This document shows, piece by piece, positions 18,715 to 50,102 of a stretch of DNA of 55,468 bases. Position 1 is the first letter of the stretch. Each line of letters begins with the position of its first letter. The stretch comes from Pseudovirgaria hyperparasitica (Eukaryota): assembly GCA_010093815.1 (NCBI GenBank), contig ML996594.1, one strand, 5' to 3'. Below the pieces are notes generated by a model. The model saw nothing but the letters and a program-made list of their open reading frames with translations, had not been told where the DNA came from and made no database searches. A program made the position numbers and the translations under genes.

Positions 18715-18733
18715 TAGAGGTTATACCCGGACT
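18715..18733 (+). promoter_or_regulatory. primer-binding site of element C, tRNA-Gln-like
   Basis: TAGAGGTTATACCCGGACT, RIP-reverted TGGAGGTTGTACCCGG, resembles the complement of a fungal tRNA-Gln 3' end (...CCGGGTAxxACCTCCA). Confidence 0.6.
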
Positions 18734-22100: not shown

Positions 22101-25100
22101 TAGCCGCCCTAGTTACGGCGGCGAGGTACGCTGCCTTCGTATATAAATAAGGCACGATAATAGAACGGCTTATAGTAGGCTCTACCGGCCTCTAAAGACG
22201 GTATTCTTCCGGGGTATTAAAGGGATTTAGTATAGCTACCATGTATAAAAGAAAGGGAGTTAAAGTACACCCTATGGATAACTCCGAAGCCCACCGAAAG
22301 GTCCCTAGGAATCTATTAGGGTATCTAGACTAGCGTGAACGAGTAATCGTATAGTAGGTACTTCTTCTAGCCGTCCACCTAGGCCTTAACGCGTTTAATA
22401 GGCTAATAGAGCCTTAAAGGGTAACTATCCCGCTAGGAACACGTCTAACGCCTCTACATATAAGTTAGCTAAAGATTAGAATAGAGCTACGTCCCGCGGA
22501 ACTTAAGTTACTATATATAATCTTATTATATCGCGAGGAAGTACTAGTATAGAAATTCTTATACCTTAGTAAATTTAATAAAGAGGTAGCACCTCCGTAG
22601 GAGATCCGAATAGTAGAACATAAGGTATAGTAGGCTAAGAACTTTAATATTCCTAGAGCCCTTTATAGGAAGGTACTCATGATTCTAAAAGAGCGTCTTA
22701 ATAGCGGAAGGCTTAAGCCCTATAGTAGTCCTTATTAAAACGCCTATTTTCTTATGGAAAAGAAGAAGGAAGCTAATAAGGAACGAGATCATAGGTTAAT
22801 TAATTCGGCGATAGAAATCAACCGAGTTACTATTCGTAATGCGGCCACGCCGCCCTCGTATAAAGAATTCTCGGAGTACTTTACGGGGATAGCCGTCTTA
22901 ACGTTTACTAACTTCTTCTTAGGATATGATTAGATTCCATTAGTAGAGCATTACCGAGACTTAACGGGGTTTATAACGCCTCTAGGGTTACTACGCGGGA
23001 TAATATTACCTTAAGGGGCCACTAATTTAGTAGCTTAGTTCGTTAGGATCATATTAACTATTATATAAGAACACATCCCGGAGAGAGCTCTACTATTCCT
23101 AGATAACTTAGGTATTAAAGGACCCACGACGAAATATAACTCTAAGGAGGCCCTACCTAGAATTCGTAGGTATATCCTAGAACATTTAATTAACGTGGAT
23201 AAGGTTCTCGCGGATATAGAGCGCGCCGGATACGCTCTAAGTAGTAAGAAGACTTAGTGGTATATTAAAGCCGCTAACGTTATAGAATACGTCTACGGCA
23301 TTAAAGGGAGGCGACCGAGTAATAAAAAGGTTACTACTATTAGGGACTAGAAACCCTATAAAAACACGACGAATATGCGAGCCTTCCTTGGCGTTTATAT
23401 ATATTTCTAGATATGGATCCCCGGGTACGCTATTATCGCATCGCCGCTATTTATACTATTAAAGAATAAATCGGTCTAGTAGTAGATAGCTAAGGAGTAG
23501 ACCTCGATAGACGCGCTAAAGATAGCTCTAACTACTACTCCTATACTAATAACGTTACGGTACGGGATAGGTGCGGGAGATATAATCCTAGTAGTAGACT
23601 CTAGTAACATTAGATAGGGGGCTACGTTAATATAGGAGAATGAGAATTATAAACGTTAGCTATCGCGGTATAATAGAGGAATATAGTTAAAAGCTAAGAG
23701 AAACTACGACACCGTGAAACTAGAGTACCGAGCCCTCCTCCACGCGTTATAGAAGTTCTAGTAATATCTCTATAGTACGTACTTTATTATAGAAATAGAC
23801 GCGAATACTCTAGTTACTTAAATTAACCATACTATAACTAACTTACTAGGGGCGCTCGTTACTAGGTGGCTCGCGTAGATTTAGCTATAGAACTTTATAG
23901 TTAGGCACGTACCTAGAAAGCGTAACGTAGTCGCTAACGGTATCTTACGGATATACGAAGGAGAAGAACCACCAGACGTCCCTACCTTTAACCTAGACGA
24001 GTTCGTGGATATAGCTCTATATATAGACGTGCTAGAGACGTCGTTAATTAAGCCTATTAGCGGGAGAGATTACACGATAGAGATACTCGACTATACTACC
24101 ATTAAGTCTCCCTTAATAGATGAATATAGCGATAAATAGTAGAGGATTACGAAGTACCTTACTATACTCGAGAGGCTAACCGACCTAACTAACCGAGCGT
24201 ATAAGACCTTTATAACCGACTACCTAAAGTTCCTCGTATATAACTAAATACTCTAGCGGAGAGGAGATAGATATCACTAATATACACGAGTAATTAAGAA
24301 TCCGAATACTAGGGCGTGTATAATTACTACCACTCACGACGAGATAGATTATAGAGATAGTAAAGGGACCCTCGGAAGGATTAAGGATAAGTATTAGTAG
24401 GTAGATATACGTAGAGACGTGCGATAGCACGTGAAAACCTATAATAAATATTAATAACAAAGTAAGCTCCTTGGAGGTCTTAATAAAGGGCTCTACCACG
24501 TTATAACGCCTATTCTTTAGTAAAGAATATACTTAGACGTAACGATACTACCACCTTCCATAGGGTATAGTAAAGTAGTATCTATACGAGAATAGCTAAG
24601 CGGATAGACTAAGGCGGAGGCATGTACGGCGGCCACGTCCATAGTCGTCGTAAAGTTCCTCTTTAAGAACGTAATCTATAGATATGGAATCATTTCTAAA
24701 ATCACCTATAACGGTAGTAGAGAAAATATAGGTGCTATAGAGGAGCTTCTCCGACTCTATAGAATTCATTAGAAGATTACGTCTATATATAATCCCTAAG
24801 TAAATAGAATTATTAAGAGAAGTTTTATACTACTCGCTAATGCTCTCATAAAGATAACTAATAGCGGATTTAAGAACTAGCCCGACCACCTCTATACGGT
24901 CGTCTAGGTAGATAGAATAACGACACGTGCTAGTATAGGGTATAGTACTATATACCTCGTGCTCGGCTATAAACTAATCATACCTATTAAAGTCGAATTC
25001 GAGTCGCTCTAAATGCTCCCTTAGGACGAGATGCGATTAACGTCCGACTTACTTGCTCTTCGAGCTAGATAACTTAAGAGAAGATCCGAGGATCTTAAGG

Positions 25101-25600
25101 AGGCCTATACCTACGCGATACGAACGCGTAAGGAATCGAGAGAGGCATAGAATAATAACTATTACCTTCGTTAAGAGTCGTTACTAGTCGATATAATTAT
25201 CCTTCTATACGACTCGTAGTAATAGAAGGATATAGGGCGGAAGCTAAGGTAGCATTAGAGGGGGCCATATAGAATCTAGTCCGTGTTTAATTATACTTAT
25301 AAGCTTACGGAGCTTAATAGAGCCATGCTTAGAGGGACGTTTCCTAGCCATAGGTTAAAGAAATATTTTATAAGAAATGTGAGTAACGAGAGTTACGACG
25401 AGCCCTCACGACTACTAATTAGAAGAATTACTAAGGAAAATAAGGAGAGTAGTAATAAGGAAAACTATTATAAATAACTTACGGAACACCTTAACGACGC
25501 TACACGAACCCGGATAGAAGTAGTAATTCCTACTCCGTAAGACTTTAATAGAGAGGAATATTTACGTTTCCCTAGAATCGATATCTCCTTCTAGGGGATA
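19190..25600 (+). pseudogene. gag-pol of element C (RIP-inactivated)
   Basis: Same frame throughout: gag FKGINIIAFL ~19403, protease VLF(D)S(G)A(Q)VN ~21480, RT FF(S)GYD(Q)IPL ~22913, LP(Q)GATN ~23005, FLD(D)LGIKGP ~23096, RNase H ~23590, integrase YNP(Q)..GII ~24790. Ends approximate. Confidence 0.88.
21924..21960. repeat. palindrome GGATTATTAGTTAAGGG-CTA-CCCTTAACTAATAATCC (copy 1 of 4)
   Basis: Perfect 17-bp arms with a 3-nt spacer. Confidence 0.95.
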
Positions 25601-26238
25601 GAAGTTTTTTTAAGAAGGGAAGGGATACTTATAAAAGTAGTCTTATAACGATGAACTCTATTATCGAAAGAGGATAATAAACCCTATCATTACTATAAAA
25701 TAATAAAACTTATTATTAAAGTAAGTAATACTCGAAAGAAGACATAATGGCGTTTACGCAAATTCCACCCACTATATATTAAAGCCGGTTATATAATCGA
25801 AGCCCACCTATCGAAGGCCCATTTCATTACTATAGAACGGGCCCTATTAGAAACTAATAAGGAAGAAAAGAAGGAGGAGATATAGGAGAAAAAGATACTT
25901 ATAGGAAGTCTTATAAGAATAAGAATATACCTAGTATCTATTCATTCATAGATTCCGCTATATACCCGGTAGATACATTCATTTATAGATTTCCTATATA
26001 CCTAGCATATATTTATTTACAGATTCGACACGTATACGGGCCTATAGCCGTTAGTAAGGATCATTTATAAAAATTACTATATACCCGGCATTCGAGGAGG
26101 CATAAAAAGAGAACTTAAGATAGTATATAACTCTTCCCTCTTATACCTCTCTATACCTCCTTAATTAATAAAACCTCCTCCTCCACTTCCGCCTCACTTA
26201 ACTACCTCTCCTTAGAACATAACTCGCCAATAGAACCG

Positions 26239-29175
26239 ATAATAATAATAGCCCCGCCGAAAAAGAAAACGCCTACCCGTAAAGAGTTATAAGATCGTTA
26301 AGTACTAATAAGATAGACGCGGTCCTAGTTAAGAGTCGTAAGTACTAAAGTAGGGCTATTAACGGCTATTATAGTATTAAGGCCATCTACTACTCCGTAC
26401 GGATAGGCTATAGAAGCTACGGAAGTAAATAAGTCTACTATTAACCGAATTATCGCCATCTAGGACCCGTAAGAGCGATAGGACTACATTCTAGATATAT
26501 TTAATAATCTCCTTTATATTACCAGCCTTATAGAATAGCTCTTAAGTAGTATAGTTAACCTCTTCTAGGAAGTAGGAGCCGCAATAGGGTATAGTAAGGC
26601 AAAGATTAACTCCTCCATTCCGAAAGAAGTCTATAAGATAATTCGTCGTGGAAGAGACACCAACTCCCGTATCCTAAAAGCCAAAAATATAATCCTATAA
26701 AACTAGCGAAAAGACCTCCCTAATAACGACGGCTAGTTACTCTAATCTACCCTTAGATAGCTCTAGTAAATATAGAACTTTATAGAAAAGCTAGTAGCGC
26801 TCTTACGAGTGCGGACATGGGCGAGAGCGAGGAACTAGTTAAACGCATCCCTATAGTCCCGAATCGGCTAGGGATAGAAGAGAAGGGGAATTAAGGCATA
26901 TCTTTAGAGCTCTAATATTAATACCGCCCTAGCTAGCGATAGTAACGAGGACGGTCTATCTCTCTAGTAACTCTTAAACTACCCTAGCCGATAAAATAAA
27001 CTAACGTTCCATAATAAGACGGGACTTATTATCCCTACTAGTTAATAGTTACGGATAAGTAGAATGGTTTATAGGCCCGTCGAACACTACCTATAAATCA
27101 AAGAGATAAGTATATCGCCTCCGTCTTAGACCTTACCATCGCTAAAACCAGCGTAGGTAACACCTACGGTAAAGTCCCCTCCATAAAGCACGCCTTCTAG
27201 TTTAGTAGTATATCGTCTCTTCGAAGCTAGTCGTCCGTTCGAAGTAAGTATTCCTTCTACTACTACTAGTAAACGTCCCTTACCGGGCTATACGAGAACC
27301 TCTTTAGTATCTATTATAGCTATACCGACAAAACCCACTCGTAGACGTACCTTATCTACCAGCCCTTAGTAATTACTAGGGGCGCCTATATAATAATCCC
27401 TAGTTATTCTTAGTTTATACTCTAAGATAATAGCATCGGTCGAGGAAGAGGACGAGCCTAAGAAGTATTAATACACGCCTTTAGTAACGAAGACTTTTAA
27501 GGTAGCTACATTATTAAAGAAGAATTTCACGAGCATTAAGGGAATGGCCCTACTAGTGCGCTAGAAAGCGTAGATAGGTAACATAGCTATTCCGTATAAA
27601 GTCTACTATAAGCATTACCAAGACGTGGCTAGAAAGAATAATATACTCGTTAGCGTGTCCTACTTAAACCTAGTAGCAAGACTTAAAATAGTATATAAGT
27701 TTAGAGATAACGTGGGGGCCCTTAAAGTTTATAAGGGCCGCTATACCTAGTTCGCGAAGTACGCGCGGCCACCTTATCCGATAGAGGCATTAGGTGTCTA
27801 TCATTACTAGGCCCTAGAGACCCTAAAGCAAGTTATTAATATTAAAACCATTCTTACTAGTATCGCATTTATAATTCAGAAGGAGGACGGTAGAATAGGT
27901 AGGTAACTCTTCGACGAGTAGAAATATACCGGAAGTATTAATATTAAAGGGCTCTTTAAGCTACTTAAAAAGACGACCTCTATACTTAATAAGAGTATTC
28001 TAGAACTCGCGAGGGATGAATTTAATATATATAAGTACTACTAGCGCATGTTTAATAAGAAATCGAACTATAGCTAGCTACGAACTATATACTACTCCTA
28101 TATCTAATAGTTTATTAGGTAATACCTACTTTACTAGCTCACCTATATCGCTCTTCGGCCCGATCTTAACTACTATCTAATCTCGTACCCGTACTATACG
28201 AAGTCCTAGGATAGAGACGATAAGACGGGTTTTAAGTATCTCGATAACGCTATCAATCGAATCCTCGATCCTAGCGATAGATATAGGTTTAATATAATCT
28301 AGGGGAGTATTAGTCTCGACGACGAACGAAGTAACGACTATACCATAATTATTCCCCGCTCCTATAAGTTCTTAAACGAATAGTAGTCGAAGGCCAAGCT
28401 CCGCGAGGGGGTTAATCAAAATAGTATAATCACGGCTATTAATAATAAGATCTATAATACGGACGATAGGAAACGATTTAGTCCCTTCGTTCCGGTCCTC
28501 TACCAGTCCCTTAAAGTACACATCTCTAGCCTACTAATAATACACGGCGCCTAGGGTCCCATAAAGGGTAGAAGACGTACGATACTTCCATGGTATATCG
28601 CGATTAGCCCTAATCATATAATAATAGAAGTGCCTAAAATAGGTACATAGGAATAACTCGCAGTAGCTTATAGAAATTTAACTCTAGGACCCACGTCTCC
28701 GTTAGGATTTTCTAATAAATATAGCGCGATTCCTTTTGCCTTCCTAGCCGTAGTTTAACTCCCGAGTTTTAACGCCGTTAGTAACGCATTAGTCGGCCGT
28801 AAAAGATAGGATAGCTAGAAGGTAAAAGAAGAGGCAGCTACGTGGCTTAACGCAAGTCCTTAATAACTTAAAGCTAAGGTAGACGCCTAGTTTAAGGAGG
28901 GCTCGAGGGTATTCATGGAGACCTTTAAGAAAATAGTAAGGTAGGAAAAGCTAGTCTATAGGGATAGGTCGTTCTAGAAGGAATTTAATAAGGCGCGCGC
29001 CGCCAAGCAGCTAATTAATTTTAAGAAATTCGAGCCTAACGCGGGCCTAGATAATATTAAAGAGAACTTCTACGGATAGAAGAGGCCTAACGAACTATCC
29101 GACGAGGAGGAATCTAACCTCTCTAAGATAAGCGACATGATTCTTTAGAAGCTGGCTCACGACCTTAAGTACTAA
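26239..29175 (+). pseudogene. cargo ORF of element C: putative 2OG-Fe(II) dioxygenase (PhyH-like fold) with a long N-terminal extension, RIP-inactivated
   Basis: About 980 codons in one frame, where the stops read were RIP-type TAA/TAG. Motifs ALRPD..LISYPYYTK, GFK(H)LD (28237-28245), I(Q)GSISLDDE, HGA (28543), RRRTILPWY (28570). Confidence 0.7.
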
Positions 29176-29200
29176 GATTAGGCGCCTAAAAGCCTACCTA

Positions 29201-29233
29201 ATTATTAGTTATGGGCTACCCTTAACTAATAAT
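29201..29233. repeat. palindrome copy 2 (one mismatch), just after the cargo ORF
   Basis: ATTATTAGTTATGGG-CTA-CCCTTAACTAATAAT. Confidence 0.92.
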
Positions 29234-30455
29234 CCGGGCTAAGGTTTACCCGCGCCGAGAGGTTTACTAGGGGCGCATTTTATTCATATTAAGGTCTTTC
29301 TTTTAGGCGTTCTTCACACGGTTTCTTATACGGTTACTATACTACTAAGGGTAGTAGTTCTATAGGCCGGGGAGGTATATGTGGAAGGCCGCTCCTATAG
29401 CCCTATATATATATGTCCCTGGCTCGATTATATGGCTTCATTATATATTTAAGGAGGGCGTTTTCCTCGGTTATTCTACTCGGCACGCTTCCCCCATTAC
29501 TAATATTTAATAATTCGACCTTTCCTTATGTTTATAGGCCTCTATGGGTATTAATTATTAGACTTAGCTATTAAAGAATTAATTAAGAGTATTATATAGA
29601 CCCGTCCTATCGTAAAAGAGAACTAATAAGAAGTCATGCGTTTAAAGAGAACTTATAATACCTAGGAGAGATACTTATGAGTTCGTCGTGACTACTATAC
29701 TAAGAACATAGCTATTTACAAAAAGGGACACACGTGGCGATAGCTTACTATAGTAGTCTAACAGGTCATAGGAGGATTCGGGAATATATTTAAAAGGGTA
29801 GTCTACTCTTCTAATAAGGTTAATTTCTAAAGAGTAGAAATTAAGTATATACGGCCTACTTATATAGTAGTCTCGCTTATTCTAGCTAGCTTAACCTAGG
29901 TCCACCTATTACGGACTATACTAGACTATAGTAGTCTAGTTAAGTCCATCCTAGTGTTAGCCCTAATAATATCCTTCTTCTTTTTATGCTTCGCCCTAAA
30001 GTACTTAGCTATATATAAATCTATAATTCTATAAGCGTTATGTTTATACGCGCATCTAATTAAATCTATATAATATTATTAATAGTCTTTATATTAGTAA
30101 ACTTAAGCTCTAGTTTACTTTTATTTATATACGCGCTTATCCCTTACTTTATAGCTACTACCTTAGAGGTAGATCCGCGGGTTATATAACCGCTATATTA
30201 ACTAAGCTTATATTTAGTTCTCTTATTCTAAATTTTCTTCTCTAGTATATCTACCTTACTCTTAAGGTAAGTCGTTACTTTATATACTATCTCCTTTAGT
30301 TTAGATCCGTTTAGGTCTAGAGTAGTCTATTTTTATTAGAGCTGGTTCTATATAATCTACTCGCGTTATTATAGTTACTAATTTAGCTTCTTTAATCGCC
30401 TTTAAGGCTAAACAAGTATTCTACTCTTAGATCTCTAGTTAACGTGTATATATAG

Positions 30456-32311
30456 ATATCTAATACTAGTTCTATTTCTAAGCCTACCTCCTCCTCTCGT
30501 AAGACTCGCTCTAAAGAGATTATCTCTACCCCGGCTATACCGGCTAAAAAATCCACTTATTATAGTAGTATAAAGGCGCGCTCTAAGTTAGAGAAGAAGG
30601 TAGCTAAGGCTACTACTACTATTACTACTAATATGGCTACTAGTCGCTCTAATCTAGGTAATCCTAGTACTAGTATTACGGAAGAGGTAGCTATAAAGCC
30701 TACCTACACCTACTCGAGCCGCCTATCTACTCTACCTCCTTTAGAGAATAAAGAAGATCTCGTTATAGATAATAATTAAGAGTTTACGCCTTCGCCGCCT
30801 CGCTCTAAATACTATTCCTCTTTTCGGTCTAATATAGACTAACTTAGTCGCTCTAGGTCCTTTTAGGACCTTAATATTCGCTCTAAACCTAGCCCTAGTA
30901 ATAATAAGGCCTAGGTCGCCGAAGATACTAAACGTAGTCACGGTTTACGCTATAGGAAAACGGCGAACTACGGTTCGATATACTTTAAGTATATAAAGGC
31001 TTACGCTACTAGCTCTAAATATCTCTTCCGCTCTAACTCTAGTATTAGCTACTACTCTATTAACCGCGATAGGCCTATATACCTAATCTTTAAGCTCCCT
31101 ATCTACTACCGCCGCTATACTATCCTTAGTAAAGTTTATCTTTAGGTAAGTCTATTAGGCTATTTTAGTCTAGGGTAATCTAAAGTTATCTATACTAATG
31201 CGTTTTTAGATTTCTATTCGTGTATAAGATATATATAACGATCTTCGCGTCTACGAGACTCTCGGTGGTTCTAGCGGTTATCTAGCTTCTATATATAGAG
31301 AGTTTAGGGAGCGCTATAAGCTCTTTCTAGAGGTTATTAATGTAAACTTAACCTCTACTATATCTAATAAGTTTATATAAGGTANNNNNNNNNNNNNNNN
31401 NNNNNNNNNNNNNNNNNNNNNNNNNNNNNNNNNNNNNNNNNNNNNNNNNNNNNNNNNNNNNNNNNNNNNNNNNNNNNNNNNNNNNNNNNNNNNNNNNNNN
31501 NNNNNNNNNNNNNNNNNNNNNNNNNNNNNNNNNNNNNNNNNNNNNNNNNNNNNNNNNNNNNNNNNNNNNNNNNNNNNNNNNNNNNNNNNNNNNNNNNNNN
31601 NNNNNNNNNNNNNNNNNNNNNNNNNNNNNNNNNNNNNNNNNNNNNNNNNNNNNNNNNNNNNNNNNNNNNNNNNNNNNNNNNNNNNNNNNNNNNNNNNNNN
31701 NNNNNNNNNNNNNNNNNNNNNNNNNNNNNNNNNNNNNNNNNNNNNNNNNNNNNNNNNNNNNNNNNNNNNNNNNNNNNNNNNNNNNNNNNAGTCTATTACG
31801 GCTAGATCCTATTATATAACTCTATTTAGATATATATTCCTTATATAAGGAATATTATATATCTATTTATACCTGCCCTTTTCATAATTAAAGTATAAGT
31901 TTAGAAACCGTTAATTATTATTAACCTTAGCTTATAATTTTTAGTCGCTGCGAGATTCCTAGCGCTTAGGCTATCTATTCTAGAGAGTTAGTTTTAGCTA
32001 CTAAGACCATAGAAGAGATTCGTGCTATTTCTTTCTACCCGCCTCGTGCTACTAATAGATCTTATAAGAGATCTACTAGTTCTCCTTCTAAGTTACCTTA
32101 TAAGAGGGTATATATTCTATTCTAGATTATTCTAGACCGTGTTAGCTAACTTTAGGTCTAGTCGCTCCGCTCTAGCACTTAGTTATCGTCTTACTAGGCT
32201 CTAACTAAGCGCGTGGTTACTCTAGAGGATAAGGTCTCTAACCTCCGTTACTCTATTACTCGGTTAGTTTATTTACTACGCTCTAAGAGTAATAATAAGA
32301 TAGAGGAGTAG
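30456..32311 (+). pseudogene. antisense intron-containing accessory gene of Gypsy A (Zn-cluster-like plus coiled coil)
   Basis: Frame from ~30456 ends (C)RR(C)TILSKV(C)L(Q) at intron 31146-31209 (GTAAGT...CTAAT...TAG). Further candidate introns ~31893-31930 and ~32108-32155; last exon ALTKRVVTLEDKVSNLRYSITRL. Confidence 0.65.
31341..31886. mobile_element. LTR-type insertion D (solo LTR or collapsed element; contains N gap 31385-31789)
   Basis: Begins TG and ends CATA; TSD ATTAA at 31336-31340 and 31887-31891; absent from the homologous copy near position 480. Confidence 0.75.
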
Positions 32312-33726
32312 CTCTATGGCTCTATTTACTAGGGTTTCTATATAGTATATATTAGCTCTATCTACCTAGTTTCTATCCGTTTTAGTCCTTTTTAGACTAT
32401 TTAGATATCTATCTACTAGTTTTCTAGTAATTTAATTCTTAACTTAATAATATTATATACGTTCTTATTTATTCTATAACTATTAAATTCTAGGTTCTAA
32501 TTTCCTTTAAGTTACTTAAGTATAGATATTATATATAAATTAGTTTATCTCTCTAAATTATATTAGAGTACCCGAACTAGTAGTCTAGTACTTATTAGTT
32601 TAGATACTCTAACCTTTTATATTATATATTACGAGTTTAATTCCGTAGTAGAGTACTTTTTTAGTTCCTTAGTTCTATATTCTTCTTATATATAATAGTC
32701 TATATTAGTCTATTCTAGACTTCTCTATATTATTCTATTATAATATATCGCGTCGCGTACCTATAACGGTTATTTATATTTTCTTTACGTTTAGTAACTA
32801 TATATTACTTAAATTATAGAGCTATCTTATAGAGTTTTACTACTATACGTTTAGAATTTATAATTTAATACTTTATTCTCTATAGTATTCTTCTTCTTTT
32901 TATAATAGCTCTAATAGTACTAGACTTATAGTAGTAACGTGTTATTCTATAACCTCTATTTATATATAGCTATCGCGGTACTTAAGATATATACCGTAGG
33001 TTCCTAGGTGTTCTTATCCTCGGTATAGTTCTTCCAACGGATTTAATACTTTTAGATACCGTTCTCGTCGAGCCTATATTCGATAATATAGTCTACTTTA
33101 TATACGTCTAGTCTATCTTAGAGTATAATAGAGTATAATTACACGTTTATACGTTTATATACGTTAGATCGAAACCTTTTAAGTAATAAGACGTGGAATA
33201 CGTTATAGACTTTTATATCGTTTCCTAGGTCGAGCTCGTAGACTCTTATACTAATACGACGTTTAATTCGGAAGGGACCAGCCATTTTATAATCGAGCTT
33301 TTTATTTACTCGCGATATTTATATATTATAGATATTAAGAAGGACTTCGTCTCTCTCCTCGTACGCTTAATCTTTAACTAATCTATTATAGTACTTTATA
33401 TACGACTTATTCGCTTACTAGATTATTACGCGATAGTTATATACGGTTTTAAAGATTTTAATCGCTAGTTCCTACGCGTGGACGTTAACATCTATTATTC
33501 AGTTAAACTAGACCGTATAAGGTTCGAAACCTATCCTTAGACTACGTTCTAGGTTCGCCTAGAAGGGCGTGACACCTATTATACTATAATAACTATTATT
33601 ATACGCGAATTCTACTATACTTAGTAGAGAGGCCTAGTCGTCTTATTTAAAATTATAGAATGCACGAAGGTAGGCCTCGAGCGTTTAGTTCTATCGCTCT
33701 ATCTAACTATCTATTTATAGATGGAA

Positions 33727-36700
33727 TGTAAGAATAGGGTTATTGGATAGTAGTATAGCTAGATAGAACAATGGGGTATATTCTATTACAGAATGAATTA
33801 CTACCGAACCCTTTTAGTAGGAATCCAAGAGTATATATATAAAGGGACGCCGATCTATCTAGCACGTGACTATTTACCGCCCTTCACGTCACCTCCTAAC
33901 CCTATTAGCTAAGGTATATATAGGTCGAGTCCTACCTAAGGCTAAGTCCTAATAATTATCCCTTCCCTCTAGGAAGCTACCCTTAGTAACCTAGATCGTT
34001 ACCTATCTCTATATCCCCATCCTAAGTCTCGCAAGACCTTAGTCGTTCTCTACGCTTCGTCTTAGATACTTACCGATATTCTCCGATCTAAGATTTACAC
34101 AAGCGTTTTCTAACAAACTAGATTTTATCCATCTTAACTTCTTACATAGGTGAGATTACCTAATTAGGCCTAGCGTATCACGTAATATGATTAGGTAAGC
34201 CCGGGTGCTACCTATATCAAAATCTTTTCTTAGAAATATTCCTTTCTTTAAAAAACCTCTTAACTCTTTATAGAGTTCTTTAGATTATTAGGTATATCAC
34301 CCGATCCTTATAGATATAGATTTATGTAGATTTACTATAATTTAGTACGATTTACGTAATTTACTAATTTTCGTGCCGTCCTTAGCTAGTAATAACATAA
34401 TTCGTAATAATCCATATAAATTAATAATAATCGTAACATGGTTTCCCGAAATCTCGACGCTCTAAAGTAATTAGCGCGGAAACAGGCGCCTTTAAATAAT
34501 CCCTATCTTATATGCGTTACCGACATGTCGAAAGCTATTAATCTACCCCGACCTAGGCCGGGCTCTAATAATCTAGCTATATATTATTATAGTTATCGCT
34601 TTCCGTCGTACGTTGCTTACGGTAGTACTAAATCTATAATATACGGTACTTACATGACTAAGAAGCGTCATTACTTATAGGTATTTAAGTAAGTTTAAAG
34701 AACTTTACGTAGATTTACTTATATCGGTATAGATTACTACTAGCCCTCTAGTAACCCCTACTAATAAGGAGCGTGGTACTACCGATCGTAACGCCTTAGA
34801 GAAGGCTTTCTACGAGCTATATATCTAAGATAAGGGTTACGCCTAGGAGTACGATTCTAATAAGATCCGTAAGGATTTATTAGAATCTACTATAGCTATT
34901 ATTACTACGATTACTAGGTAATATCGTTTTTCTTAAATCGTTATAGATTCTTACTAATATATATTAATCTCTATAATAGTACTAAAATCTCTACTACTTC
35001 GGACTTCTTTCTACATACCAGCAATATTAAAATTCCTAGAAAAGATTCTAGTAAAAAGACTAAGGTTCCTTCCCCACGCGTGCTAAAGAGCCGTAAATTT
35101 AGGGAAGATAGCTCTAATCTAGAAGTTTCTATACTAAAGGTATATAGTTCTATACTAATCGTTAAATCTTTTTATTAATTTATATAATTCTTAGCGTGCG
35201 CGCGCCGGTCCGTCCCTCTCCGTCCCGGGTTCTACCGCTCTATAGGTTTCTATAGAGGAGCTTATAGCTATAAGGCGCGCTATATAGAATTTGTAGCGTC
35301 GGAACGAAAGGCTAGAGACTTATATTATAAAGCTCTATACTATACTAAACAAGAACCAGCAGAAGGAATTAGATGTAACCATCGCGGTGATTAGTACTTC
35401 TACTCCTACTCCGACTTAATTAGTTTAGATCTACACCGATCGGTGCTAATATATCTCTTTTATCTAGCGTTTTTGGTTTTTCGGTTTTAATTTTAAAGCG
35501 ATCTTGCTTCTTCTAGATAGATTAGTGCGAGTTTACATAGATCTATATAGATCTTTATATTTTCTTTTAGCTTTCTTAATTTTATCTTTCTTTAATAATA
35601 ACTTTCTTAATCTCTTTAGTAATCTATACCGATCTATACCGATCGGCACCGATTTTCGATGTCCATTTCTCTTAGTAAATCATTTTTCTAAGTCTCTTTT
35701 TTAGTTAAATTTTTTAAAGTTCTAAGTTCGAACTTTCTAAGGAAGTTCCTTAATTCCTTAGAATGTTTTAAAGATCTATATCTCTTTTACCTTCTTCCTT
35801 TTAGGCGGCCGTCCTCGGCGCTAAACTATACTAAAAAACGTCGAATCGCCGTACTTTAGTATAATTCTCTACGATTCCGCGGCTTCCTTTACTAATCGCT
35901 ACTTATATACTAACATCGCTACTTTACTAATGTTTATTATAGGTTCCCAAGTATCTTTATTAGGATTATACCCTTTCTAATGAATTTTATATAGCTACGT
36001 ACCATCTTCGGCACGTTATTAGCCTAGTATCTACTTAACTTCGTAGATATCCGCACCTCCTTACGTAACTACTTTATATAACGTCTATTCGGAATGATCC
36101 GGTAACGATAAGGCATGGAATAACTCGAGAAGCGTAATATGGAATATATTATATATCTTTAACGTGGGAGGGAGTTTCAACTTATACGCCTAGTCATTAA
36201 TTACACGAGTAACCTTAAATAGACCTATTATCGTGTAGTTAAGCTTCTTCTTCGGCCTAATACTACGAATATTCTTACTATTTAGTAAAACTTTATCTCT
36301 AACATTAAAGATCATGGGCTTTCTACCCTTATTATAGTACGATTTACTATAATCTATAGCATCTTATAATAACTTTATAACGCTTCTTTGCGTTTAGAAT
36401 AGTTCTATCGTAATCTCCGTCGCCTTAACGTTAGGCTACTCTAATTTATACTAAGTTCCTATAAACTACGCTTTATAGTTTCGACCGAAGTTTACTTCGA
36501 ACGGACTTACGTGGGTTAACGTATATTAGCTATTATTATACGCGAATTCCGCGATATAGACTAACCTTACCTAGTTATCTTACTTATAGTTATAATATAC
36601 GCGTAAATACGCCTTAACTATCTGATTCTACCGCTCTATCTACCTATCTATTTATAGGTGGAACGCGGTACTAAGTTTCCGCTTAATTCCCAGCGTATAG

Positions 36701-39700
36701 TAGAAATCCTTCTAAAACTTAGACGTTATCTACGGACCTCTATCCGAAACTATACCGTTCGGTATACCGTAGAGCCGAACTACGTCACGAAGTAGTATAT
36801 CTATAAGATCTAGTGCTTAGATTATCTTCCTTATAGGGATATAGTATAACATCTTTATAAATCTATCTAGAACTACGAGTAAACTATTATAAACATGCCT
36901 AAGATACTTACTTAGGGGTAGATCTATGATAAAATCCATTAACAATTCTTTCCATGCCTTATTTAGCATAGGCAATAGCCTTAATTCGCTATATGGTAAG
37001 TGTCTATACACTTTCGTATGCTGGTAAACGTTATACGTTTTTACGTAGTCCTTTATATACTTATAAAGACCTAGCTAGTCGTATATCCTTCGGATTAAAT
37101 CGACTGTCCTTATAACGCCGAAGTATCCTACTAATACGTAATTATACTATTCCCTTAAAACATCGATTCGTAAGCCGCCCTCCAGCACGTAGAGTCGGCC
37201 TTAGAAGTAGATCGCGTCCGATCGTCGTTCCCACCTTAATAACTATGGCGGTTCTATAGCGATTCCCTTTATACTTATAACTTTCTTTACTAATATATTA
37301 GAATTCTAGGTAGATTTAATTAAGTCTTTAAGGATTTACTCTATTTCTTAGACGTTAGTTTGGATTACTTAATACCCGCTCTAATTCCCGCGGAGAGTCG
37401 CCGAAAGTGTCCTGGCTTCCGGCACTCTATTAGATAACTAGTCTTTTAGTATCTATAGTATAGCATAGTCTAAATTACACCAACTATCTACGTTATTCTA
37501 CGACGATTTCTCGTAATCTTTACGCCGTAATAGAGGATCTACTTTATTCTCTCTTCTAGCTTTATATAAGATTTTAAAGTTAAATATTAACATCTACTTA
37601 GCCTAACGTACTTATTAGCGATTAAGGACCTTGGTCGACATAAAGTAACGTAGATTTACGTAATCCGATAATAATTCAATCTAATATACGGAGCCTTCTA
37701 AATAATATCGCCATTACTTAAAACTCTTAATAATTATAAGTAGTTCCTAGTCGTGCGTGTTATAACGCGTCTCTATATCCGCCATTTTATAGGAAAAGAA
37801 GGCGACCGGGTGCTATTACACCTTGTCTTTCGTATCTTTATACGGTTAACTAATAATTCTAGTAATTACGAATCTAGATACGTCTATTTCGACCTAAATA
37901 TGCTTCTCGGGATTAAAATATCTAAGGATCGGTATAGTTATAAAGTAATTCTTTAACGATCGGAACGTATCTCGCGCTTCCGGCGTTAACTATATCTCGA
38001 CCGACTCCGCTTTACGCTATGCTCGCCTACCTATAGGGATTTTACCGCCATTTTCGGTAAGTTTATTAAGCGGCGCCGCAATTCGTAAGAAACCTATAAT
38101 GAATTTACGATAATAGTTCACGAAACCTATAAACGTCCTAATTTAACGTATAGTAGTAGGTTCTAGCTATTCTATAATAGTCTTAACACGCTCTAGCTCC
38201 ATTTTAAGGCCGCCGTATATTATAATAAAGCCGAGAAACCTAACTTCTTATTAGTAAAACTTACATTTAGATAACTTTACGTAGAGTTTATACTATCTTA
38301 AATAATTTAGCACCGATTTCACGTGTTCTTCGTGATCCTACATGCTATCGGAGTAAATTAGTATATTATCGAGGTAAACTACGTAGATCACATTAAGTAA
38401 TCCTATAAGTATAGTATTAATGTATCCTTAGAACGCTCCTAGCGTATTTATTAGCCTAAACGGCATAATAGTATACTTAAAATAACTATATCTAGTCCGA
38501 AATGCGGTTTTCTACTTATCTCCGCGACGGATTCGAAGCCGGTAATATATATCTCGTAAATCTAGCTTTATAAAGTACTTTGCCTTCGTTAATTAGTCTA
38601 AAGATTCACTAACCAACGGTAATAGGTAACGATTCTTCTTAGTCACCGCATTTAGTACTCGATAGTCGACGCATAGATGTAAACTTCCGTCTTTCTTCTT
38701 TATAAAGAGAATAGATACGCTAGCTAATAACGTACTACGACGTATCTAGCCTCTTCTAAGATATTCTTTAATATATTTATAAAGAACTTTAAGTTCTAGT
38801 CTCGAAAGTAGGTAAAGTAGACTATAAGGGACGTCTACTCCCTCTTTAAGCTTAATCTTTAGCTTATGCGGCCTATAGTCGGGGAGAAGTAACGCGTCTC
38901 CTACCGAAAATATATCTATATACTACGAATATACGTCGGGTAGCGTGTCTTTACCCCGATTATTACTATCCTCTTTGTCTTCGTCGATAATCGATAGGGA
39001 TATAAGGTAGATTAGCGACGATCGGGTCCGCACGGTAAGGTTCCATGCCTCCTTACTAATAGTTACGACTTACTAGTATAATTTACCGCGATGTTAACGG
39101 AACGTTAATGTCTCCTTCTAAAAATTAAGGATTGGGTTTAGGCGTTTAAGCTAAGGCATCCCTAGAATCATATTCTATTAGCTAATATTAGCCACGATGA
39201 ATTTATTAGACATCTACTATTTTATTATCTTTAAGTTATAAACTTCGTAATTCGTTATAGTTTTACCTAAAGTTCTAACTTTATATCTATTAACTACGAT
39301 AGTTCGGCTAACTTTACTAAGATCGTACGATAATCTATACTCCTTAACGAGAATCGACGAAATATAGTTATCTTCTATACTAGTGTCCACGAGGGCCTAT
39401 ATAGTTTTATTACTATTTACTATAGGTAACGATACTTTTAGTAATATTAGGTCTTTACTCGCCGGAAGGCGCTACGGCTCCTCCTAAGTATATATAATTT
39501 AGCTAAGAACGCGGTTAGGTCTCGCGTACTAGCCTATTCTTTTTTTGGATTCTTATAGTTAGGCGAAATATATCCCTTTTCTCTATACTTATAGTAATAA
39601 AGTACGCTATGATCCTACTATTTTACGATAGGCGTTATATTTAAGCCTATGCCTTATCCTTTTCCGTGTTGGGAACTACCGCCTCGATTATTTCGGTGTC

Positions 39701-41109
39701 CTCTTAACGCGTTTCTACCCCGATTTACGCTCTTCTAGCGTTAATCGCGGTGAGGTTACTCTTGATCGAACGTATTCGATCGACCTCGTTTCTAACCTAT
39801 ATAGGGTTCGTCGGTTTTACCTAGAGAGCCGCGTTCCTTAAGGATGCGGTAGTATTCGTTAGCTTTCTCCTCTAATTCGTATAGATAGTTAAAACTTAAT
39901 AATACTATTTCTAATCTTTCGCGGATTAACGGGAGTAGTACTTCGCGAAACTAGAATATACGAATATTTTTCTATAGTATAGGGATATTATCCTAGAGGT
40001 TTTATAGGTATTATAGTAGTTAAGTAGGTGTCTGGTTCGGTTATTATGCCACGCTTCTTAACTTAGATAGTACCTTTCTTTCGCGTTCTTCGTTAGTTCC
40101 GAGGGTATTTAGTATAAATATAGCTAAATATTCCTAGGTTGTCGCCGATAGTAGCTTAACTTCCTTCTATCTATCCCATTGATCGTGGGATTGTGAACCT
40201 AAGTAACGTTCTCCAAATGAAATGCATTATACTTTAGTAGAAAAGAGTATAGGGTTATTGAGGAAGTACTTCTCGTAGTCTCTCTTCTAATCTTTCTACT
40301 CCTTTTAGTTCTTCCCTATAAATATAGTCGGATCTTTAGGTTTCGGTATACCTAGGGACGGGATAGGGTAAGTCGGTAGTGAAGTGGCCGGAACTATAGT
40401 AGATTATCGCAATTCTAGTGGGGGATAAATTAATTCCGCCTAGATTAGTATAGACTATTATTTAGCTATTATCGCTCCGCGTAGTCTTTTAAGAGACTCG
40501 TTAAGTTCTCGTCGTTTTACGAGGAGTTTCGTACGTTCGGTCTATTCTTTAAGGATCTATATCTCTCGGGCTTAATTAGCGATATACTCCTATAGTTCGG
40601 CGATTAATGGTTGCGATTCCTCGTGTAGCTCTACTACGACTTATTATCTAGCTTTCTATCGTGGGAAGTCGCTTAGTATATCTACTATTTTCTTATTAGA
40701 AAGTTCCGTGATTCGGTCGGACATCTCCACTTCTCTATTAAGAACGGCTGGATTTAATGCCGATTATAGAGGATCCCTATTATTTAATGTAGTATTACTT
40801 GTCCCTATAGTAGATCGTGTCGACCTTCTTGGTTCTAGTTAGACCATCTTAGCTATAGTACTATATAGGGAGTAATTCGAATGTAAGAATAGGGTTATTA
40901 GATAGTAGTATAGCTAGATGGAATAATGGGGTGTATTCTATCATAGAACGAATTACTACCGAACCCTTTCGGTAGGAATCCGAGAGTATATATATAAAGG
41001 GACGCCGATCTATCTAGTACGTGACTATTCACCGCCCTTCACGTCATCTCCTAACCCTGTTAGCTAAGGTACGTGTAGGTCGAGTCCTACCTAAGGCTAA
41101 GTCCTAACA
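33727..41109 (-). mobile_element. Gypsy/Ty3 chromodomain LTR retrotransposon B (7.4 kb)
   Basis: 228-bp LTRs at 33727-33954 and 40882-41109; TSD TGGAA (33722-33726, 41110-41114). Gag knuckle ~39555-39600, A-run at the gag end ~39540, protease ALVDT ~39390, RT YLDNILIYS ~38350-38378, integrase ~36400-37150, chromodomain (W)KGYNPNKDTWEP ~35940-35980, PPT 33955-33970. Confidence 0.93.
34438..35419 (+). pseudogene. antisense four-exon accessory gene of Gypsy B (Zn-cluster-like plus coiled coil)
   Basis: ATG 34438 MVSRNLDALK...P(C)LIC...(C)...(C)GT(C)MTKKRH(C)L(Q). GT-AG introns 34681-34732, 34918-34979 and 35140-35194 keep frame; last exon EELIAIRRAI(Q)NL(Q)RRNERLETYIIKL; stop at 35417. Confidence 0.7.
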
Positions 41110-44100
41110 TGGAATACTATTAATATGTTTCTATTTATACCGGCTATTTCATAGAATAACATCTAGAATTTAGACGTGAATATACTCTCTCGGTCCGTAA
41201 TAATCCTTTTTAGTATACCATGGACCTTAATAATCTTATTCTAGAATACTTATACTAGTTCTTTTAATATAATCGTCTTCTATATAGGGACGTACCTAGA
41301 TATCTTTATAAGTCTATCTATAATAATAAGAATTGAATTATAACTTATCCTAAGCATCTCGCTTAGAGATAAGTTAACTATAAAATCTATAGTAATATCT
41401 TTCTATATAAAGAGGGGGACTAGTAGAGGCTATAAGTTCTAATATAGCTTATATCTAGATACCTTTATTCTTTAATAAATCGGATAAGTAGCTATCTATT
41501 CTTCGACGTACTTAGGTATATCTTCCTAAAAATAGTACTAACGAATCGAGCTTAGGGTGCGTATATACCCGAAATATCCTACTAGGTTAGCATTATAGTA
41601 TCGGCTAACTATAGTAAATCGTGCGTTACCCGTTAGTATATAGTACTTTCTATTATAGTAGAGTAAGCCGTCCACGAAGGTCTACTTATAGTCTACTTTA
41701 GTCCGTAATAATCTATCTTACTATATTTTATATAACTTTAAAACTATTAGGTCTATCTTTTATAGATCCACGATTAACTAGGCGAGGTCTACTTAATATA
41801 TACGCCGGGTACTATCGCCCTCCCTAATAGCGCCGATAAATGGCTCGCTAGGGACTTTAGTACCGCGTCTTTAGTTACCGGCTTCGGTCTTATAAATTTA
41901 ATTACCGGCATCGGCGTTAGTATCTCGCTAATCGTTAGATAACTTATTATCTAACCTTATTCTTAAGAGTTAGGCCTATAGCTACTCTAGGACCCTATAG
42001 CTACTATAATCCTAGGCGCCTTCTTTATAGTTAGGTCTTCTTAACATTCTATTAGCTAGGTTTATACTTCTAGGTTAATAGTAGATTATAAAGTAGAAAT
42101 TTATAAGCTACTTAGCCTATTAAACCTATTAACGATTTAAAACTATCGTACTTATAAACCCCTTTAAGTTATAGTAATTAGTTAGTAACTTAACGTTATA
42201 CATGGTACCTTTAAGATAATATTACTACTACTTAAACGACTCTACTATTACTAGTAGCTCTTAGTTATAAATAGTATATCTAGTCTTAACGTCGGCTATC
42301 TTACGCGAGAAGAATATAACTAGATACTATTAGACCTTTTTAGACTCTATTAGTCTAGGCTAGAAGAGTATACTCGAGATTATAAATTCTAATATATTAG
42401 TTTCGACGTAAATAGGTTTAGTTAGATCGAAGTACACTAGTAATAGGGCGGTTATAAATACTTCTTTAATCTTCTCGAAGAATATTCTTTCGACCTTAGT
42501 TAATTTAATAGGTTATAATTTAATATTACGCTATTTCTATCTACTACGGACCGTAATAGACGAGTTAGTAGTAGTAGTACGCGTATTAAGTAGTGCGGCT
42601 AAACGGAAGAAGTATTTAATAAATTTTTAGTAGTAGTTAGCGAAGCTAATAAAGACACGTATATCTCGAACGGATTTTAGTTTAGGCTAGTCTATAATAG
42701 TAGTAACTCTATCTCTCTCTATAGTTATACCTTAATTAGTAATAACGAAGCTAAGAAAGTTAATATAGTCCTAATAGAACTCGCATTTAGATAGCTTAAT
42801 ATATAGCTTATACTTTTCTAGCCTATCTAGGACTATACGTACGTGCTAGATATGCTTCTCCTTATTATCTAAGAAGATAAGAATATTATCTAGGTACACG
42901 ATATATATCGTGTCGAGTAGGCCTACTAGCGCGTTATTAATATACGCTTAGAAGGTGCCTAGCGCGTTAGTTAGTCTAAAAGAGACCATAGTATACTTAA
43001 AGTATCTATAACGGGTCCTAAAAGCCGTTTTCTATTCGTCGCCTTCCTTAATGCGAAGGCGATAGTAGGCGTTATATAGATTAAGCTTAGTAAAGATCTT
43101 TACGCGTTCTAGTCTATTAATAGACTTAGAGATAAGAGGTAGTAGGTAACGATTCTTTCGCGTAATGTTATTTAGGCTACGGTAGTTAATATATAGACGG
43201 AGGCTTCTATCCTTCTTCTTTATAAAGAGAATTAGAGCTCCGGCTAGGGATATACTAGATCTAATCTATTCTTATATAAGGTTCTTTTTAATATATTCTT
43301 AAAGGGCTTATAACTTAGGTTCTAAAAGTGGGTAGATAGGTCTATATAGAGGTTACTAGCCGTCTTTAAGATTAATAGTAAGGTTAGTAGATTAGTATTA
43401 AGGTAGTTCGGAGGAATCGATCGCTAACGTAATATATTAGTATATTTTATACTAATATAGTAGGTTTTCGTCTACTTTAATACTAAGCTTACTATTTTAT
43501 ATAAGTAAGAGTACGTAGATAGTAGAGATCGCCTTCTTATAATCTTTCTAGAATTATTTATCGTCGATAAGCTATACTAGTTTCTATTAAGGTAGGTTCA
43601 TACGCTAGCCAGCTATCTTCTTAAGGAAGTCTAGTTTTAGGTTATATTTCTTAAGCTATGGTATACCTAGAATTATATTAAAGGGACTATCTACCATAAT
43701 AAAGGTTAAGTAGTAGAGTTTCTATTTCCCTCCGCTATCCTAGATACTATATTTAATAGTATAGGTACCGTATAACTTAATAGGACCGTCGATACTATAG
43801 AACATGGCACCTATTAAAGCTTGGATATCGGCGTTAAGTTCTCGTGCTTATTAGGTCGACATAACGTTAGTAGCCGACCTACTATTAAGTATTATAGTCT
43901 AATATTATCTATAAGGGACCTCGATAGGTCTAGTCTATAGTTTAATATACTATTTAGCGGATTACCCCTCTATTATAGTTATATCTATAAGTCGTAAGGG
44001 TTTCTCGTAGGCTATTAGTTTTTTATATTCTATACTAGATAGTTAGGCGTGATGTGTCCTAGCTACTAGTACTTATAGTATATAACTAGTTAGTTAGTTA

Positions 44101-49000: not shown

Positions 49001-49863
49001 GTTATTATACTTATAATAGTCTATTTAAATTTAGTGCTTATAATATATCCTTAGATATTATAGAGCCTAAATTATATAAATAAGCTATGAAAAGTACACA
49101 TGCTATAGAATGGAAAAATGCTACTATTAAGGAGTATAATGACTTATTAAGTTAAAATACATGGGATTTAGTAGATAAACCTAAAAATGGTTCTACTAAT
49201 ATAATCTCTAGTAGATGGGTATTTAAAATTAAATTAAACCTAGATAATACCATTAATAAGTATAAAGCCAGATGGGTAGCTAGAGGTTTTCTACAAAAAT
49301 ATGGAATAGATTACCTAGAAACCTTTGCTTATACTACAAGACCTATAGTAATTCGATTATTACTACTTATAGGCGGGTTATATAATCTTAAAATACATCA
49401 ATGGGACTTTAAATCAGCTTTTCCTAATGCTAGATTAAAAGAAACCATATATATATACCAGCTAGAGGGGTTTATAGACTCTAATTACCCTAATAGAGTC
49501 TATAAATTAAATAGAGCTTTATATGGACTTAAGCAATCAGTTAGAGAATGGCAAGACCTACTTAAGAATATATTAATATCCTTAAAATTCACTTAAATTA
49601 TAGCTGAAAATGTAGTCTATATTAGAGATAATATAATTATTTTAGCCTATGTAGATGATATATTAGTTTTTGCACCTAATACTAAAGATATAGATAACTT
49701 CTATTTAGAGATAACCAAGTACTCTAAATTAGATATATCTAATCTAGGGCAAGCTAAATATTACCTAGGAATGGAAATAAAGAGAGATAGAACTAAAGGT
49801 TCTATTATATTATCTTAATCTTCTTTTATTAAGAACTTATTAATTAAGTTTAATAAAGAGAAT
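46080..49863 (+). mobile_element. Copia/Ty1 LTR retrotransposon, truncated in RT by the LINE
   Basis: gag NYDI(W)AIR(M)ESILIEKG at 46561, knuckle CSYCKKPN(H)IEDKC ~47152, protease WIID(S)GAS ~47382, (W)(H)NRLGHIN ~47824, integrase before RT, YKARWVARGF ~49261, YVDDILV ~49648. Left LTR boundary is approximate. Confidence 0.9.
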
Positions 49864-50102
49864 ATAATAATAATAATAATAATATTATATAACTAGGTAG
49901 AGTAGTACTCTATAGTTCTATGCCTCCTCTAGTCTAAGCCACTATATAAGAAGAAACCCCATAGGGAAAAACTTCCTTATATCTATAACTACATCTCGTT
50001 AAACCTCTATTTCGTCTTAAGTATATAGCTATAGGGTACGCCTATTAGTCTATAGCCTATATTACCGTTATTTTACCCTTAGGTAGCACGTATAGATACG
50101 GA

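Follow-up and report, generated by a model that had tools for sequence, protein, structure and literature searches.

A probable antisense spliced gene, decayed by point mutation, behind pol of a fungal chromodomain Gypsy element

We analysed a stretch of 55,468 nucleotides of contig ML996594.1 of Pseudovirgaria hyperparasitica (assembly GCA_010093815.1), hereafter called the window. AT-rich retrotransposons riddled with transitions lie nested in it around an island of normal GC content at 6-16 kb. Such a pattern marks repeat-induced point mutation (RIP), and it is from this pattern that we name the process that acted on the window retrotransposons. One of them, Gypsy B, carries between the end of its pol gene and its 3' long terminal repeat (LTR) a candidate four-exon gene on the opposite strand (34438-35419). 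We consider it highly probable that RIP has killed here a copy of a real antisense gene belonging to the element, of the type still carried intact by the nearest unmutated relatives that were found, the elements of the metagenome loci L002 and L003.

Gypsy B is delimited by a direct repeat of 229 nt (33724-33952 compared with 40879-41107, 92.6% identity), which is its LTR pair. Read on the minus strand, the LTRs start with TGTTAGG (TATTAGG in the 3' copy) and end with CTTACA, that is, with TG..CA ends. The 5-bp target duplication TTCCA flanks the element at 33722-33726 and 41110-41114, and the flanking sequences carry on the 'FH' codons in the integrase of another Gypsy, element C. The repeat at 33725-33959 had also been considered as integrase coding sequence of Gypsy C; this was rejected, the junction sequences being those of the Gypsy B LTR. 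Given the LTR pair, the shared TTCCA flanks and the abutting polypurine tract, Gypsy B is a complete element. Its pol gene is one unbroken minus-strand frame from 39999 to about 35800 (read through, with X at stops) in which Pfam recognizes protease, RVT_1 (E 7.5e-26), RNase H, integrase H2C2, rve, SH3_Tf2-1 and Chromo domains, and past the chromodomain the frame stays fairly open to about 35450. From the end of the chromodomain (about 35920) to the start of the 3' LTR (33954) there are about 1.97 kb, close to the 1.9 kb given by the first-pass annotation, and since the element is complete this stretch is internal to it. The antisense gene lies between the end of pol (about 35450) and the polypurine tract (33955-33970), on the strand opposite to gag-pol.

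As indicated in Table 1, this strand has an ATG (34438-34440) and three GT-AG introns that link the frames, just as the first-pass annotation had read it, and a terminal TAA (35417-35419). With a phase-0 intron 1 the model has exons of 243, 185, 160 and 225 nt (813 nt, 270 codons) whose junctions fall after codons 81.0, 142.67 and 196.0, giving the phases 0-2-0; either version of intron 1 joins frames 1, 2, 1 and 2 in this order (269 or 270 codons). The 270-codon model contains seven in-frame stops, of which the first-pass annotation made no mention, all of them TAA or TAG (codons 11, 81, 113, 119, 213, 227 and 230). The key residues of exon 1 are Y23-x2-C26, Y53 and Y69-x2-Y72-x6-Y79, and the exon tail reads Y-G-T-Y-x6-Y-L-stop, followed at once by GT. 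The spacing first proposed, CxxC-x26-C-x14-CxxC-x6-C with Tyr reverted to Cys, is present as a Tyr/Cys pattern, but we counted x15 and not x14 between Y53 and Y69. Exon 4 contains the expected C-terminal heptad-like helix, with nine successive a/d positions hydrophobic, one Asn among them; heptads are not rare, however, and since the pattern occurs at 54 places in the window it is no evidence on its own. The putative introns resemble each other in two places (34714-34742 and 34928-34956, 83% over 29 nt; 34921-34970 and 35142-35191, 70% over 50 nt), a likeness that may be due to chance in TA-rich DNA.

Table 1. Coordinates of Gypsy B, of the antisense gene model and of the corresponding motif in Gypsy C (positions in the window).
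Feature	Position	Strand	Remarks
Gypsy B, complete chromovirus-type LTR retrotransposon	33727-41109	-	7,383 bp; sits in the integrase of Gypsy C
Gypsy B 3' LTR	33727-33954	-	228 bp; junctions read
Polypurine tract	33955-33970	-	abuts the 3' LTR; AGAGGGAAGGGATAAT read on the minus strand
Stretch 5' of the antisense ATG	33971-34437	+	presumed promoter/5' untranslated region, from its position; no plus-strand coding signal (codon model)
Exon 1	34438-34680	+	81 codons; stops at codons 11 and 81; ends Y-L-stop right before GT
Intron 1, homology-guided	34681-34732	+	52 nt; GTATTT..TATAG; phase 0, matching L002, L003 and Gypsy C
Intron 1, alternative	34689-34743	+	55 nt; GTAAGT..CTAG; phase 2
Exon 2	34733-34917	+	frame 2; 2 stops; strongest coding signal
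Intron 2	34918-34979	+	62 nt; GTAATA..TACTAAT..ATAG; phase 2; found exactly by the codon-model path search
Exon 3	34980-35139	+	frame 1; no stop; Lys/Arg/Ser-rich stretch
Intron 3	35140-35194	+	55 nt; GTATAT..ACTAAT..TTAG; phase 0
Exon 4	35195-35419	+	frame 2; 3 TAG stops; heptad-patterned helix
Gypsy B pol end	35450-36045	-	chromodomain about 35920-36045 plus Lys/Arg-rich same-frame tail; tail to tail with the antisense gene
Gypsy B 5' LTR	40882-41109	-	228 bp; junctions read
Exon-1-end motif in Gypsy C	31107-31145	+	antisense to Gypsy C; Y-x2-Y-x6-Y-L-stop, then GTAAGT
Gypsy C putative intron	31146-31209	+	64 nt; phase 0; with TACTAAT; then open shifted frame up to the N run (feature to 31380)

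We then looked at intact relatives. The integrase-chromodomain part of Gypsy B used as a query returned 51 Gypsy pol proteins, 23-40% identical to the mutated query, of which 14 were aligned, and 74 metagenome loci were fetched. In a pol tree Gypsy B and Gypsy C group with L002, L003, L011 and L001 (SH-like approximate likelihood ratio test, 99); their exact place is unsure owing to their deviant composition. Behind pol, both L002 and L003 carry an antisense gene that is fully open, with four exons and three canonical introns (donors GTAGGT, GTATGT, GTACGT and GTAAGT). That of L002 has exons of 294, 164, 142 and 201 nt and introns of 44, 47 and 51 nt and encodes 266 amino acids; that of L003 has exons of 267, 197, 211 and 186 nt and introns of 79, 72 and 58 nt and encodes 286. 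The junctions fall after codons 98.0, 152.67 and 200.0 in L002 and after codons 89.0, 154.67 and 225.0 in L003, in both cases with the phases 0-2-0. Both proteins have a Cys-rich first exon, a basic middle and a coiled coil at the end, exon 1 reading CX2C-X15-C-X22-CX2C-X5-C in L002 and CX2C-X16-C-X12-C-X19-CX2C-X6-C in L003. The existence of an element-borne antisense spliced gene, which the first-pass annotation had put forward together with a search for intact chromovirus relatives, is supported: the relatives found have Cys, and not Tyr or His, in this module, and they keep the splice pattern.

In both relatives exon 1 ends with C-x2-C-x5/6-C-L-x and then GT at once, and Gypsy B has the same exon end with Tyr replacing Cys. 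When this hallmark was searched for in the six frames of the window, Tyr being allowed, 13 matches were obtained, two of which were followed by GT, and these two lie antisense behind the pol genes of B and C. Similarly, the 74 intact loci gave 35 matches, and the two followed by GT were L002 and L003. Gypsy B and L002 also have N-N-P-[C/Y]-x-x-C at the first knuckle in common. The Gypsy B gene and those of L002 and L003 are alike in position, orientation, exon number, intron phases, length (270 codons compared with 266-286 amino acids), exon 1 end and C-terminal coiled coil; they differ in that L002 and L003 are intact and GC-normal whereas the Gypsy B copy is mutated, and their sequence similarity is at best marginal. 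Shared intron phase can link genes that have diverged past sequence recognition. As the relatives support a first knuckle at residues 23-26, a canonical-looking set of Tyr residues in exon 1 (Y50, 53, 61, 69, 72 and 79, with a first loop of x7) was demoted to an alternative.

Gypsy C, too, carries some 3 kb past its chromodomain (29972-32980, read here on the plus strand, antisense to the element). The plus-strand frame spanning 30456-31145, which ends with the hallmark, is interrupted by no more than 4 stops in about 230 codons; part of the antisense gene is hidden by an N run (31385-31789). An inverted partial copy of Gypsy C (1-3017, minus strand) keeps the hallmark peptide at 1622-1660, with no GT after it.

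Reading Tyr as former Cys is justified by the same decay in the pol gene of Gypsy B itself. Indeed, in columns conserved among the 14 aligned relatives, Tyr now stands for 2 of the 3 Cys and 6 of the 11 His, among them the two Cys and the two His of the integrase zinc finger, and stops stand for 7 of the 10 Trp and 6 of the 8 Gln. Since all but one of the inferred Cys of the antisense gene are Tyr and seven codons of the Gln/Trp type are stops, nothing functional can be made from it; the Gypsy B copy is dead.

Several tests against chance were made. On the plus strand the best low-stop spliced path scored 288, compared with a mean of 213 (standard deviation 29) in 150 dinucleotide shuffles, a single one of which reached 288; when introns were disallowed, the observed value was reached by 9 of the 150. 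The antisense model has 7 stops in 270 codons (2.6%), compared with 5.3-7.7% in the mutated pol frames, but some non-coding frames carry only 5.4% stops and can thus match the mutated pol frames, so that stop density is a poor guide here. Because the choice of GT..AG pairs was too permissive in the low-stop search, a codon log-odds model was trained with the four pol genes of the window, mutated as they are; when each gene in turn was left out, 70 of 92 sixty-codon windows had the true frame in first place. Exon 2 scored +8.3 in the proposed frame and -4.6 or less in the five others, and exon 3 scored +5.0, its frame being the best. The codon-model path search gave 13.2 on the plus strand, above the maximum of 9.8 of 12 equal-sized controls taken antisense to pol; sense pol chunks gave at least 18.1, but these chunks are coding throughout and over twice the length of the stretch. 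Finally, a Zn2Cys6 regular expression tolerating Tyr for Cys had one match in the six frames of the window, located in exon 1, and block shuffles gave 0.015 for this expression on the plus strand of the gene stretch.

The stretch is not private to this copy. Contigs from two runs of one sample, X1 (9,110 contigs) and X2 (2,884), matched all 30 bins of 33720-36100 with a likeness of at least 80%, which means that the whole stretch is part of a high-copy family, and the antisense gene stretch is common to the family copies, without a private insertion. The variant places in X1 are almost all transitions (C>T 56, G>A 55, A>G 22, T>C 16, G>C 1, T>G 1), and only three rare indel places were seen among the X1 and X2 contigs in 33720-36100. 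The G of the antisense ATG reads A in about 62% of the depth. The transversion G35200C, present in other copies, is silent in frame 2 of exon 4 and not in frame 1. The only contig joints seen were four skips (218, 65, 116 and 179 nt, one contig each), none of which matches a model intron. Within the window there is no second copy of 33960-35900, and tblastn found no paralog there. Two runs of another sample with the same species label, X3 and X4, have on 33726-33952 a GC-rich, seemingly unmutated LTR-like sequence, including one contig of 2,840 nt with a depth of about 2,600, and almost none of the Gypsy B internal region.

A number of observations weigh against an antisense gene of this type. 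The grouping of B and C in the pol tree may stem partly from their shared mutated composition. Mutation-aware alignment of the Gypsy B and L002 proteins was only suggestive (z 1.95, with 5 of 150 shuffles as high), as was that of their first exons (z 2.38, 9 of 400), and for exon 1 of L003 the result was null (82 of 400 shuffles as high). L002 and L003 themselves have no detectable protein similarity (E 0.48) even though their pols are sisters; the absence of similarity to Gypsy B therefore says little, and the link between them rests on gene structure, position and a short motif. As for the model, the donors GTATTT and GTAATA are without the usual G at +5, and the stop-avoiding path search prefers GT..AG pairs other than those of the first-pass annotation, such pairs being very common. 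With the codon model exon 1 reached only +0.5, a tie with one minus frame at 1.1, and exon 4 was a tie as well, frame 2 scoring +1.1 to +2.1 and frame 1 scoring -1.1 to +0.1; the latter, free of stops and open to 35394, is a possible alternative for this exon. At the decay rate of pol, finding Tyr at all six key residues is expected about once in ten, and a copy of the same family with intact Cys was not seen among the 40 variant places listed out of 161. Searches for homologs gave nothing: Pfam had no match to the four exon pieces at E <= 10, two read-through searches of an index of 5.8 billion proteins scored none of their 277 and 49 candidates, phmmer/HMMER over 1.84 billion representatives returned 0 matches, and tblastn of the four pieces against the 74 metagenome loci had a best E of 2. 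A profile of relatives mutated in silico gave only negative scores on the window (one row being out of frame).

These points bear on the possibility that there is no gene at all, and that a long non-coding 3' part of the element shows an ATG, GT-AG pairs, Tyr spacing and heptads by chance in TA-rich mutated DNA. GT..AG pairs are indeed plentiful enough for the stop-avoiding search to find other, higher-scoring spliced paths, heptads occur at 54 places in the window, real genes have antisense frames that are almost as free of stops as their sense frames, and the stretch is without a homolog in sequence searches. On the other hand, the codon model supports the predicted frames as they switch, the Tyr pattern is unique in the window, the motif followed by GT is confined, within the window, to the stretches behind pol of the two elements B and C and, out of the 74 loci, to L002 and L003, and exon number, size and phases match those of intact relatives. 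We thus regard the absence of a gene as very improbable and retain a decayed antisense gene of the L002/L003 type.

Antisense genes are also found in other chromovirus lineages, without introns. At nine loci an intronless antisense open reading frame (ORF) of 134-206 amino acids abuts the pol end, three of the nine being stop-to-stop fragments without an evident start; these ORFs have an N-terminal CX2CX6(8)CX8-11CX2CX6-7C and then a long helix. A strict Zn2Cys6 regular expression had 11 matches in the six frames of 611 kb, and 8 of them were antisense, 281-1184 nt past the pol end. Of the 39 loci with enough downstream DNA, 10 have an antisense CxxC...CxxC-x5-8-C ORF behind pol, a 6-fold enrichment. 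In four close pairs of intronless antisense genes the ratio of nonsynonymous to synonymous substitution rates (dN/dS) was 0.08-0.15; these ORFs are therefore real genes under purifying selection. In the pol tree two groups of intronless genes belong to clades other than that of Gypsy B, and the mutation-aware alignment of the window gene to ten intronless genes was not significant (z <= 2.3). A Cys-rich N-terminus with a C-terminal coiled coil, the layout proposed by the first-pass annotation, fits L002, L003 and the intronless genes of other lineages.

The dN/dS values and the intact relatives also bear on a further explanation, according to which the stretch is a fragment of a host gene once captured by the Gypsy B lineage and carried without use to the element. 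The introns and the host-like transcription-factor layout would suit such an origin, as would the very fast evolution, the sister elements L002 and L003 being without detectable similarity. It is however difficult to reconcile with complete open genes that have a start, a stop and the same intron phases in separately diverged elements, with strong purifying selection on the intronless counterparts and with the recurrence of antisense genes in three chromovirus clades. We therefore hold an unused host fragment to be improbable and keep to a gene that belonged to the element.

We then considered whether the Cys module is a Zn2Cys6 cluster, as the first-pass annotation had proposed. In Gypsy B the claim fails on spacing, since the first loop of x26 breaks the rule that the annotation itself quoted; the pattern CX2CX6CX5-12CX2CX6-8C is not present and a single Cys survives. 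In the Gypsy B clade, that is in L002 and L003, the first loop is x15-16 and the halves are 19-22 residues apart, outside the CX2CX6C rule. The Zn_clus (PF00172) match that had been hoped for was not found either, neither with window pieces nor with exon 1 of L002 and L003 (Pfam, E <= 10). As both spacing and profile criteria fail in this clade, we call the Gypsy B module Zn-cluster-like.

The fungal Zn2Cys6 binuclear-cluster DNA-binding proteins Gal4, Ppr1, Put3, Leu3, Hap1 and Pho7, which dimerise through a coiled-coil element, are like the antisense genes in having an N-terminal six-Cys module and then a coiled coil. In contrast to them, these proteins are host transcription factors and not transposon genes, the first loop and linker of the Gypsy B clade are much longer, and the Cys of Gypsy B are inferred from Tyr. 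Canonical spacing is confined to the intronless genes, which are more distant relatives. Pfam Zn_clus gave sub-threshold scores in 2 of the 10 intronless genes scanned (16.3 and 15.0 bits, with a cut-off of 21). An AlphaFold model of one of them, L025, made from 9 sequences, reached a predicted local distance difference test value of 64, with 58-72 for the Cys region, and residues 67-132 form a helix predicted with confidence. Foldseek with this model gave no match at E <= 0.001; the best of the weak matches was Pho7 (E 0.25, root-mean-square deviation 2.5 Å over 39 columns), and 18 of the 22 weak rows were Zn2Cys6 DNA-binding domains by title (Pho7, Put3, Leu3, Ppr1, Gal4, Hap1, Lac9 and AlcR). 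The row for CBF3 presumably also holds a Zn2Cys6 domain. A profile search of the PDB with the intronless family returned nothing significant, 6 of its 23 weak rows being Zn2Cys6 proteins. In the ESM Atlas L025 resembled unnamed Ascomycota clusters (0.93-0.94), and nothing was found for exon 1 of L002 (0.77).

These data leave room for a real element-borne antisense gene whose Cys module would be some other zinc knuckle or ribbon binding RNA or protein, for instance in a Gag or integrase partner or a silencing antagonist, with the coiled coil serving oligomerisation. Such a module would account for the lack of any Pfam family in exon 1 of L002 and L003 or in the window pieces, for the long first loop and the wide separation of the halves in the Gypsy B clade, and for the fact that even genes with canonical spacing stay under the Zn_clus cut-off. 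Yet the second half, CxxC-x6-C, is canonical, the full canonical spacing occurs at the same place and in the same orientation in other chromovirus lineages, and the weak structural matches of L025 are nearly all Gal4-type domains. We find such a different module rather unlikely; a true Zn2Cys6-type DNA binder in Gypsy B is a somewhat better prospect, which we put forward tentatively and with real doubt.

How a spliced gene can persist in a retrotransposon is readily explained by its orientation: introns antisense to the genomic RNA of an element stay unspliced there and survive retrotransposition. The three introns of this gene would hence not be lost and would be inherited by every new copy. 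The promoter was probably located in the stretch of some 470 bp that adjoins the 3' LTR on its inner side, and the spliced mRNA would once have coded for a protein of about 270 amino acids in three parts: an N-terminal Cys-rich metal-binding module with two CxxC knuckles, the second being CxxC-x6-C, a basic middle, probably nuclear-targeting, and a C-terminal coiled coil for pairing. If the Gal4-type layout seen in the related intronless genes is a guide, this product was most likely a dimeric nucleic-acid-binding factor that served the element, for example at its own LTR or in targeting. The reverse promoter near the 3' LTR and the role as a regulator or anti-silencing protein that the first-pass annotation put forward are likewise conjectural. 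In the 5' LTR of Gypsy B (40970-40982, minus strand) there is a CGG-N7-CCG just downstream of a TATA-like run; it is mutated in the 3' LTR, where the CG at 33815-33816 is kept in about one quarter to one third of the depth of the other copies. This sequence resembles Zn2Cys6 dimer binding sites and is a candidate site, as a lead only.

Gypsy A, a third Gypsy of the window (18342-29752, plus strand, 11.4 kb), has LTRs at 18342-18710 and 29384-29752 that are 93.8% alike, and its 3' LTR lies about 3.4 kb past pol. In between, at 26226-29190 on the plus strand, the sense coding signal is very strong (path score 61.7-71.4, compared with 15.9 for the other strand), which points to a large extra sense ORF without a Pfam family. 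Beside its 5' LTR, at 17559-17747, lies a tandem array with a 27-nt unit (5 overlapping 81-nt copies, 67-75% alike). At 46510-49869 on the plus strand there is a Copia-type gag-pol with 26% GC, rich in Asn, Lys and Ile; it has 16 stops in 1,120 codons, compared with 5-8% in the neighbouring Gypsy elements.

An extra antisense gene of fungal Gypsy elements, brtn, was reportedly described by Zhao et al. in 2011 (Virology 417:248), and it is known here through citing papers. According to these, brtn belongs to Boty-like Gypsy elements of Botrytis cinerea and Sclerotinia (PMC7264820, PMC8365987, PMC4227169, PMC5987419). As described there, it is like the Gypsy B gene in position and orientation, lying in a fungal chromodomain Gypsy, between pol and the 3' LTR and antisense to gag-pol. 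Sequence searches with window pieces did not return BRTN. The plant Gypsy elements Grande, RIRE2, Retand and PvRetro13 have an antisense ORF between pol and the 3' LTR, 'aORF-3R', which is kept in most copies of a family and to which no function is assigned in the passages concerned (PMC7264820). It shares position and orientation with the Gypsy B gene but belongs to plant non-chromovirus lineages; a Cys-rich or coiled-coil product is not mentioned in those passages, and the likeness is one of layout. The full texts searched, among them passages of two surveys of fungal elements (PMC3248453 and PMC10799480), contained no mention of a fungal Gypsy element with an antisense gene of the zinc-cluster kind.

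Since the Gypsy B copy is dead, the wider interest lies in the family that it points to. LTR retrotransposons have few accessory genes, and what these do is mostly obscure; the intact relatives show that an antisense gene behind pol is recurrent in fungal chromoviruses and under purifying selection, and its layout is that of a dimeric zinc-cluster DNA binder. For annotation, the lesson is that clusters of Tyr in RIP-mutated DNA can mark former zinc fingers. The sample of 10 of 39 metagenome loci, together with both sister elements B and C, raises the possibility, to which we attach limited confidence, that a fair proportion of fungal chromodomain Gypsy elements encode their own antisense Gal4-like factor, with a six-Cys zinc module and a dimerising coiled coil, intronless in some lineages and four-exon in that of Gypsy B, and selected for LTR binding, expression or integration. 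If true, this would be a class of transposon-encoded sequence-specific regulators without description in the literature searched, part of which the work on brtn may cover. Such elements would bring along their own transcription-factor-like protein, which would offer a handle on their self-control or targeting, and they would be a possible source, or product, of the very large Zn2Cys6 repertoire of fungi.

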